The position numbers and the translations under genes are program-made. A stretch of DNA of 8,665 bases from Escherichia coli (GTDB lineage: Bacteria > Pseudomonadota > Gammaproteobacteria > Enterobacterales > Enterobacteriaceae), in assembly GCF_003334355.1 (NCBI RefSeq), contig NZ_QOWP01000061.1; one strand, written 5' to 3'. Below, in pieces: positions 1,528 through 1,591 of the stretch (positions within the stretch are counted from its first letter, which is position 1; each line of letters begins with the position of its first letter). Below the pieces are notes generated by a model. It saw only the letters and a program-made list of their open reading frames with translations. It was not told where the DNA came from and did no database searches.

Positions 1528-1591
1528 AGCGGTCATTTATGTCAGACTTGTCGTTTTACAGTTCGATTCAATTACAGGAAGTCTACCAGAG
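1528..1591. promoter_or_regulatory. dnaQ-rnhA divergent promoter region (64 bp between start codons)
   Basis: The two genes are transcribed divergently from a 64-bp intergenic region; established knowledge is that their promoters overlap here. Individual -10/-35 boxes not confidently assigned by eye. Confidence 0.5.

Follow-up and report, generated by a model that had tools for sequence, protein, structure and literature searches.

The stretch of DNA analysed here, hereafter the window, consists of 8,665 nucleotides of an Escherichia coli genome (RefSeq assembly GCF_003334355.1, contig NZ_QOWP01000061.1). It contains the junction between dnaQ, the gene for DNA polymerase III's epsilon subunit, and rnhA, which encodes RNase HI. 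The two genes lie head to head, and a gap of 64 bp at 1528–1591 separates their opposite-strand start codons, the dnaQ ATG at 1527 (minus strand) and the rnhA ATG at 1592 (plus strand). A preliminary description, made from the letters alone, had noted this spacing and called the locus intact and canonical. The spacing is borne out by the open reading frame coordinates and by an identical 64-bp gap in K-12 MG1655 (rnhA 235535–236002, minus strand; dnaQ 236067–236798, plus strand). The layout is that of K-12, with no rearrangement or divergence at 1528–1591.

796–1527, minus strand: dnaQ coding sequence, DNA polymerase III epsilon, 243 residues (translation and RefSeq)
1528–1591, no strand assigned: 64-bp intergenic gap between both start codons
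1592–2059, plus strand: rnhA coding sequence, RNase HI, 155 residues (translation)

Both products pass the equivalog cut-offs of their families. The dnaQ product, a DEDDh proofreading exonuclease, scored 392.7 bits against NCBIfam NF004316 (cut-off 196) and 317.7 bits against TIGR01406 (cut-off 222.7), and its catalytic residues D12, E14, D103, H162 and D167 are all kept. The rnhA product scored 265.5 bits against NCBIfam NF001236 (cut-off 160), with the catalytic residues D10, E48, D70, H124 and D134 all retained. The RefSeq annotation of strain PSS-12, which is 100% identical to the window, was used for comparison. A longer dnaQ reading frame of 246 residues, starting from an in-frame ATG at 1536, was rejected because this codon is not conserved in Yersinia and Photorhabdus and because the RefSeq start is at 1527 in both K-12 and PSS-12.

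The preliminary description had proposed aligning the junction with K-12 in search of promoter variants. In that alignment window positions 1400–1720 are 100% identical to K-12 and no promoter variant is present; the junction sequence therefore gives no basis for predicting an altered mutation rate. Over the longer interval 416–8665, 2 of 8250 bases differ from K-12, at 5395 and 6859. Thus the locus is the textbook E. coli K-12 dnaQ–rnhA junction, which is already known.

The window being identical to K-12, the genome-wide start-site maps of K-12 apply to it directly. The start sites given here are published K-12 data placed on the identical sequence, the window position being 237594 minus the K-12 coordinate. 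The Cappable-seq scores used are those of the K-12 plus strand, the strand of dnaQ, only. Hexamers in the following lines were read from the sequence.

1573 (K-12 236021), minus strand: dominant dnaQ start, 46-nt leader, found in four independent datasets
1567 (K-12 236027), minus strand: minor dnaQ start, Cho 2014
1548 (K-12 236046), minus strand: minor dnaQ start, Cappable-seq
1603 (K-12 235991), minus strand: minor dnaQ start, Cappable-seq score 24.4 and SMRT-Cappable-seq
1615–1610, minus strand: −10-like hexamer GAAAAT of the 1603 dnaQ start, within rnhA codons 4–8
1657 (K-12 235937), minus strand: distal dnaQ start, Cappable-seq score 21.0
1669–1664, minus strand: −10 hexamer TAAAAT of the 1657 dnaQ start, within rnhA codons 22–26
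1553–1554 (K-12 236040, ±1), plus strand: proximal rnhA start, leader of about 38 nt, SMRT-Cappable-seq
1477 (K-12 236117), plus strand: distal rnhA start, in dnaQ codon 17, 20 reads in the sigma-TU table of Cho 2014
about 922 (K-12 236672), plus strand: very weak rnhA start within dnaQ, 2 reads, Kim 2012

The dominant dnaQ start at K-12 236021 has a Cappable-seq score of 405, 122 reads in Kim 2012, where an identical 46-nt leader was mapped in Klebsiella pneumoniae, and 203 reads in Cho 2014; SMRT-Cappable-seq puts it at 236020. In a published promoter list dnaQP1 stands at 235934 and dnaQP2 at 236017, and the classical distal and proximal dnaQ promoters are therefore those of the starts at 1657 and 1573. 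The dnaQ starts at 1603 and 1657 both fall within the rnhA coding sequence. On the other strand, SMRT-Cappable-seq reports an operon b0214|b0212 whose start, on the reverse strand at 236040, is the proximal rnhA start. The distal rnhA start at 1477 has no convincing −10 element. The supplement of Mendoza-Vargas 2009 contains no start-site entry for the dnaQ–rnhA locus.

These positions define the geometry of the junction. The main starts cross: the rnhA transcript begins at about 1554 and runs rightward, and the dnaQ transcript begins at 1573 and runs leftward, an order that is not that of back-to-back promoters. Since the start sites cross, the two mRNAs share about 20 nt of complementary sequence at their 5' ends (1554–1573). 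With the distal starts at 1477, 1603 and 1657 the 5' overlap rises to about 100–180 nt. The extra starts lie within the partner's coding sequence, so that the functional region extends over approximately 1440–1700. The shared overlapping-promoter region of the preliminary description therefore stands in part. The promoters do overlap, and dnaQ has at least two; the control region is not, however, a self-contained back-to-back one, its starts crossing and reaching into the partner's coding sequence.

Each main start can be assigned a −10 element, and the gap is arranged around the two elements as follows.

1588–1580, minus strand: extended −10 element TGgTAGACT of the main dnaQ promoter (classical proximal, P2), invariant in 13 Enterobacterales sequences
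1540–1548, plus strand: extended −10 element TGtCAGACT, assigned to the proximal rnhA promoter by its conservation and by the start 5–6 nt downstream
1550–1578, both strands: variable centre between the conserved blocks, transcribed from both strands and holding the 5' overlap of about 20 nt
1576–1581, plus strand: candidate rnhA Shine-Dalgarno sequence AGGAAG, 10 nt upstream of the ATG, read from the sequence
1534–1594, no strand assigned: imperfect inverted repeat CATTTATGTCAGACTT / AAGTCTACCAGAGATG, containing both −10 blocks

In the dnaQ promoter, the hexamer TAGACT (1585–1580, minus strand) ends 7 nt upstream of 1573 and is preceded by TG at 1588–1587, which places the mapped start exactly at +1. 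This element is wedged between the AGGAAG of rnhA (1576–1581) and the rnhA ATG, and its upstream promoter DNA consists of rnhA codons 1–6. The rnhA element mirrors it: it lies 12 nt from the dnaQ ATG, and its upstream promoter DNA is formed by the first dnaQ codons. Both elements consist of TGn followed by a hexamer whose second base is A and whose sixth is T, and at −35 no more than three of six bases match. On their sequence both promoters fit the extended −10 (TGn) class of sigma-70 promoters, for which dependence on the TG is predicted. An earlier guess for the rnhA promoter (−35 TTGCAG at 1516–1521, −10 TATGTC at 1538–1543) was discarded; with that hexamer the mapped start would be 9–10 nt away, and the TG-extended CAGACT is the better fit. 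The proximal rnhA start had been forecast at 1553–1558 from the conserved block around this element, block A below, before the SMRT-Cappable-seq value of 1554 came to light.

The two elements sit in the arms of the inverted repeat found by a repeat search, at 1534–1549 and 1579–1594. The arms are 16 nt long, 75% complementary and 29 nt apart. The pattern TGNYAGACTT occurs three times in the window against 0.07 expected. The third copy, TGGCAGACTT at 5501–5510 (plus strand), lies antisense within yafE and may represent an extended −10 promoter in antisense or be there by chance. Separately, a short palindrome GGTAGAAATTT/AAATTTTCACC at 1603–1618, within rnhA codons 4–9, shares bases with the main dnaQ promoter's −35 region and with the GAAAAT of the minor 1603 start. 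A purine-rich GGA or GAG is found at the AGGAAG position in other Enterobacterales, consistent with a Shine-Dalgarno role for rnhA, which we infer. No Shine-Dalgarno sequence can be seen in the dnaQ leader. When both leaders were folded as RNA, no structure beyond that of shuffled controls emerged (z +1.15 and +0.33). In the gap, searches for a DnaA box (TTATCCACA) and a LexA box (CTGT-N8-ACAG) gave no match above chance; a LexA-like site at 1530–1545 with two mismatches was rejected as chance-level.

Conservation was examined in 80 loci carrying RNase HI relatives, taken from one-genome-per-species contigs, on which dnaQ, yafS and gloB were placed by tblastn. Only two blocks of the gap are invariant in the 13 Enterobacterales sequences, TTTATGTCAGACTT and AGTCTACCAGAGATG; these are called block A, at the rnhA −10 element, and block B, at the dnaQ −10 element. 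The centre of the gap varies in both sequence and length among Enterobacterales, the whole gap measuring 52–64 bp. Five Vibrio species (TGTCAGACT) and Aeromonas (TGTCAAACT) also keep block A, and at the position of block B Vibrio has a different extended −10 element, TGaTACTAT. The distance from block A (1536–1549) to the dnaQ ATG is a constant 11–12 nt in Enterobacterales, Vibrio and Aeromonas despite the variation in gap length. Because this distance is fixed and the dnaQ leader lacks a Shine-Dalgarno sequence, the pattern suggests that block A may have a second role in dnaQ translation.

A natural test is offered by one locus. In Klebsiella sp. BIGb0407 (locus L016) dnaQ no longer lies beside rnhA. 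Here block A persists upstream of rnhA, and two bases of block B have changed (AGTCTTCCAGCAATG). This pattern fits block A acting as the rnhA promoter and block B as the dnaQ promoter. At L016:1391–1500, rnhA–yafS–gloB is preceded by two sugar-metabolism open reading frames, with the breakpoint just left of block A. Synonymous codon identity among Enterobacterales is 0.80 over rnhA codons 1–12, versus about 0.3–0.6 in most other windows of the alignment, which is consistent with promoter DNA lying inside these codons.

The same loci indicate how the head-to-head layout may have come about. In Xanthomonadales, Burkholderia and other beta- and gammaproteobacteria the order is gloB(−) yafS(+) rnhA(+) dnaQ(+), and in Enterobacterales, Vibrio, Aeromonas and Alteromonadales it is dnaQ(−) rnhA(+) yafS(−) gloB(+). 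The sole difference between the tandem and the divergent clades is that rnhA is flipped. In alphaproteobacterial loci tblastn found no dnaQ within 1.5 kb. The gap of the divergent clades is 52–75 bp in Enterobacterales, Vibrio and Aeromonas and longer in several Alteromonadales and other loci. A gloB–kerV–rnhA–dnaQ neighbourhood has been described in 51% of 197 proteobacterial genomes, and it is co-directional in P. aeruginosa (An et al. 2009, PMC2744870). The comparison of gene orders points to an older gloB–yafS–rnhA–dnaQ cluster in which rnhA was inverted in place, giving the divergent layout.

Within E. coli the junction is nearly invariant in its occurrence. A 264-bp query spanning it was searched in 5426 complete E. 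coli genomes and was found as a single copy in 5425 of them. One genome had no junction match at all, and two of the matches sit on records labelled as plasmids. The 64-bp gap is unchanged in 3922 of the 5425 genomes, and the other 1503 have one to three mismatches. Four variant genomes were aligned. They contain no insertions or deletions. Three positions account for all their single-nucleotide polymorphisms (SNPs): 1550 (G>A), 1553 (G>A) and 1557 (T>G). All lie centrally in the gap and outside both −10 blocks.

The face-to-face arrangement bears on how the two promoters could be used. The open complex of RNA polymerase spans roughly −55 to +20. Open complexes on both core promoters would overlap at about 1553–1574, and occupancy of the two would therefore be mutually exclusive. 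A polymerase leaving either promoter would have to cross the other, with occlusion or collision as the expected outcome. A much stronger dnaQ promoter would, under such a mechanism, keep rnhA low, and the outputs of the two genes would shift inversely. The dnaQ promoter is the stronger by read counts (203 versus 20, Cho 2014), and rnhA should therefore stay low.

Expression data were considered in this light. In stationary-phase cells, deletion of rpoS changed the rnhA values from 7.29/6.71/7.30 in the wild type to 8.49/8.82/7.65, an increase of about 2.3-fold, and the dnaQ values from 9.80/9.38/9.41 to 8.63/8.77/7.92, a decrease of about 2.1-fold. A 1988 report, from the same group as the 1987 paper cited next, is said to have found dnaQ to be damage-inducible. 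For rnhA, down-regulation on SOS induction has been reported (Quiñones 1987). This expression evidence is indirect. The coordinated expression that the preliminary description had put forward is not supported in the sense of co-activation: the geometry predicts competition, the ΔrpoS changes are opposite in direction, and SOS induction is reported to lower rnhA. Promoter coupling between dnaQ and rnhA is plausible, and the face-to-face geometry would favour antagonism over co-activation.

Taken together, the locus is very probably best explained as the canonical K-12 junction with two crossing, face-to-face extended −10 promoters, to which we infer a competition between the promoters and an origin by inversion of rnhA. 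Several observations weigh against this explanation. The proximal rnhA start is supported by one dataset, to ±1 nt, and other datasets give other rnhA starts, at 236117 (20 reads) and 236672 (2 reads). CAGACT is a weak −10 hexamer with a short spacing of 4–5 nt to the rnhA start. A strict sigma-70 consensus scan of 1300–1800 gave no −35/−10 pair, owing to the weak −35 elements, and a terminator scan of the same interval was also empty. Synonymous conservation at the 5' ends of genes is common for reasons other than promoters. The ΔrpoS microarray is a single contrast of borderline significance, which independent regulation could explain.

Other arrangements were weighed against the face-to-face promoters. 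A pair of back-to-back divergent promoters sharing the 64-bp control region, with the genes switched together, would account for divergent genes with a short gap between them, for two products established as acting on replication intermediates, and for the report that gloB, rnhA and dnaQ of P. aeruginosa all reach their highest activity during early log phase (An et al. 2009, PMC2744870). It is highly improbable given that the mapped starts cross (dnaQ 1573, minus strand; rnhA about 1554, plus strand), that each −10 element adjoins the partner's start codon, and that more starts are found within the partner gene. Further, no DnaA or LexA box above chance occurs in the gap, and the expression data go in opposite directions. 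A different possibility accepts the face-to-face anatomy as real and regards it as a neutral relic, in which each gene brought its own promoter, the two were squeezed together after the inversion of rnhA, and expression is effectively independent. Such a history has an appreciable chance of being correct, though we would not expect it. Overlap of 5' ends is common, with 136 of 388 divergent E. coli operon pairs overlapping (Conway et al. 2014); rnhA retains its promoter block away from dnaQ in the Klebsiella sp. BIGb0407 locus; rnhA and dnaQ are adjacent in tandem in many other Proteobacteria; and a literature search gave no direct test of coupling. The starts are, however, only about 20 bp apart, at which distance joint occupancy appears sterically implausible from known polymerase footprints. 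Moreover, Enterobacterales, Vibrio and Aeromonas all keep a short gap of 52–75 bp, though it is longer in several Alteromonadales and others, and the expression shifts are opposite in one comparison, with a reciprocal SOS effect also reported.

The invariant blocks could instead be operator half-sites of some regulator, or translation signals in the leaders such as AAGUCUGACAUAAA in the dnaQ leader. This would suit the inverted repeat that the blocks make, the fixed 11–12 nt between block A and the dnaQ ATG, which is not required of an rnhA −10 element by itself, and a dnaQ leader without an obvious Shine-Dalgarno sequence. Yet the blocks have the form TGn plus hexamer at the right distance from, and on the right strand for, the mapped starts, and the 29 bp between the arms is a long distance for one dimeric operator. 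Block A also stays with rnhA after dnaQ has moved (L016), and neither leader has a significant predicted RNA structure. This explanation is consequently improbable, although the blocks may serve both functions. The face-to-face promoters can also be taken further, to a conserved reciprocal switch. Here the inverted pair of extended −10 elements would impose mutual exclusion, and a single 50-bp site would determine how much proofreading exonuclease there is relative to RNase HI. The switch would be as old as the in-place flip of rnhA at the base of the Enterobacterales–Vibrionales–Aeromonadales–Alteromonadales group, and block A would double as the rnhA −10 element and as part of a dnaQ translation start that lacks a Shine-Dalgarno sequence. 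If it exists, the common SNPs at 1550, 1553 and 1557, in the doubly transcribed centre, could alter the ratio of the two enzymes. We consider this extension rather unlikely and put it forward tentatively.

The remainder of the window holds features that do not belong to the junction. An Rfam scan of the whole window returned only two tRNA-Asp genes.

587–663, minus strand: aspV, tRNA-Asp(GUC), just downstream of dnaQ
8590–8665, minus strand: aspU, tRNA-Asp(GUC), cut by the right end of the window, with the rrnH 5S rRNA beyond it in PSS-12

At the left end, 1–415 is part of an IS1 element whose transposase is annotated in PSS-12 and whose terminal inverted repeat finishes at 393–415. From 416 on, 171 bp downstream of aspV, the sequence is again homologous to K-12. 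In place of the yafT–ykfM side of K-12, PSS-12 carries IS1 followed by an ISAs1 remnant and yafV. A search with the full window gave thousands of plasmid and chromosome matches because of the IS1. At the other end of rnhA, the stop codons of rnhA and yafS overlap tail to tail by 4 bp at 2056–2059. SMRT-Cappable-seq lists b0214|b0212 as a "novel" transcript that runs from the rnhA promoter into gloB (window 1592–3567), antisense to the whole of yafS. ExcludonFinder gives yafS–rnhA and dkgB–yafC, both in the window, as convergent excludons.

Two smaller reading frames were noted. The yafE gene (5045–5668, minus strand) is called an N-terminally incomplete pseudogene by RefSeq in PSS-12. Its open reading frame here has the same 207-residue extent as in K-12, with one base different (5395), and the orthologue in Klebsiella, with 771 nt against 624, is the longer of the two. 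The pseudogene flag is probably an annotation artefact and not a lesion. In addition, ykfO (b4815), a 10-codon small protein in the K-12 annotation, is present at 3274–3306 (minus strand), on the opposite strand within gloB, since the sequence is identical to K-12 there.

As a locus call the result has limited weight, confirming an intact region of the K-12 type. Its use lies in the anatomy. The junction is better described as two promoters facing each other, with DNA that reaches into the partner's first codons, than as a shared upstream control region. Because promoter DNA lies in the first codons of the partner, edits near either start codon hit the partner's promoter; rnhA knock-outs, dnaQ mutator constructs, deletions and recoding are examples of the edits affected.

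The closest known system is the K-12 dnaQ–rnh locus itself, with its overlapping promoters (Maki, Horiuchi & Sekiguchi 1983 PNAS 80:7137; Nomura, Aiba & Ishihama 1985 JBC 260:7122); the genes, the 64-bp gap and the junction sequence all match it. Compared with MG1655 the strain differs only by the IS1 downstream of aspV (window 1–415) and by two SNPs elsewhere. The title of the 1983 paper speaks of an "overlap of the promoter regions" and that of the 1985 paper of "convergent overlapping dnaQ-rnh genes". The latter wording agrees with the face-to-face starts mapped onto this sequence, and the face-to-face refinement is itself consistent with the 1985 description. The junction also resembles the excludons, divergent operons whose 5' transcript ends overlap (Conway et al. 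2014), in that the 5' ends of dnaQ and rnhA are complementary. Its main overlap of about 20 nt is, however, far below the 168-nt average given there. The ExcludonFinder text contains no dnaQ–rnhA entry, its sole entry for rnhA being the convergent yafS–rnhA pair; a mutual exclusion of the excludon type would be our proposal for dnaQ–rnhA. The tandem yafS(kerV)–rnhA–dnaQ cluster of Pseudomonas, Xanthomonadales, Burkholderiales and further Proteobacteria (PMC2744870) shares the same four-gene set, with rnhA and dnaQ as immediate neighbours. In that cluster rnhA and dnaQ are co-directional and dnaQ lies a few tens of bp downstream, whereas here rnhA alone is inverted and the two genes stand head to head.

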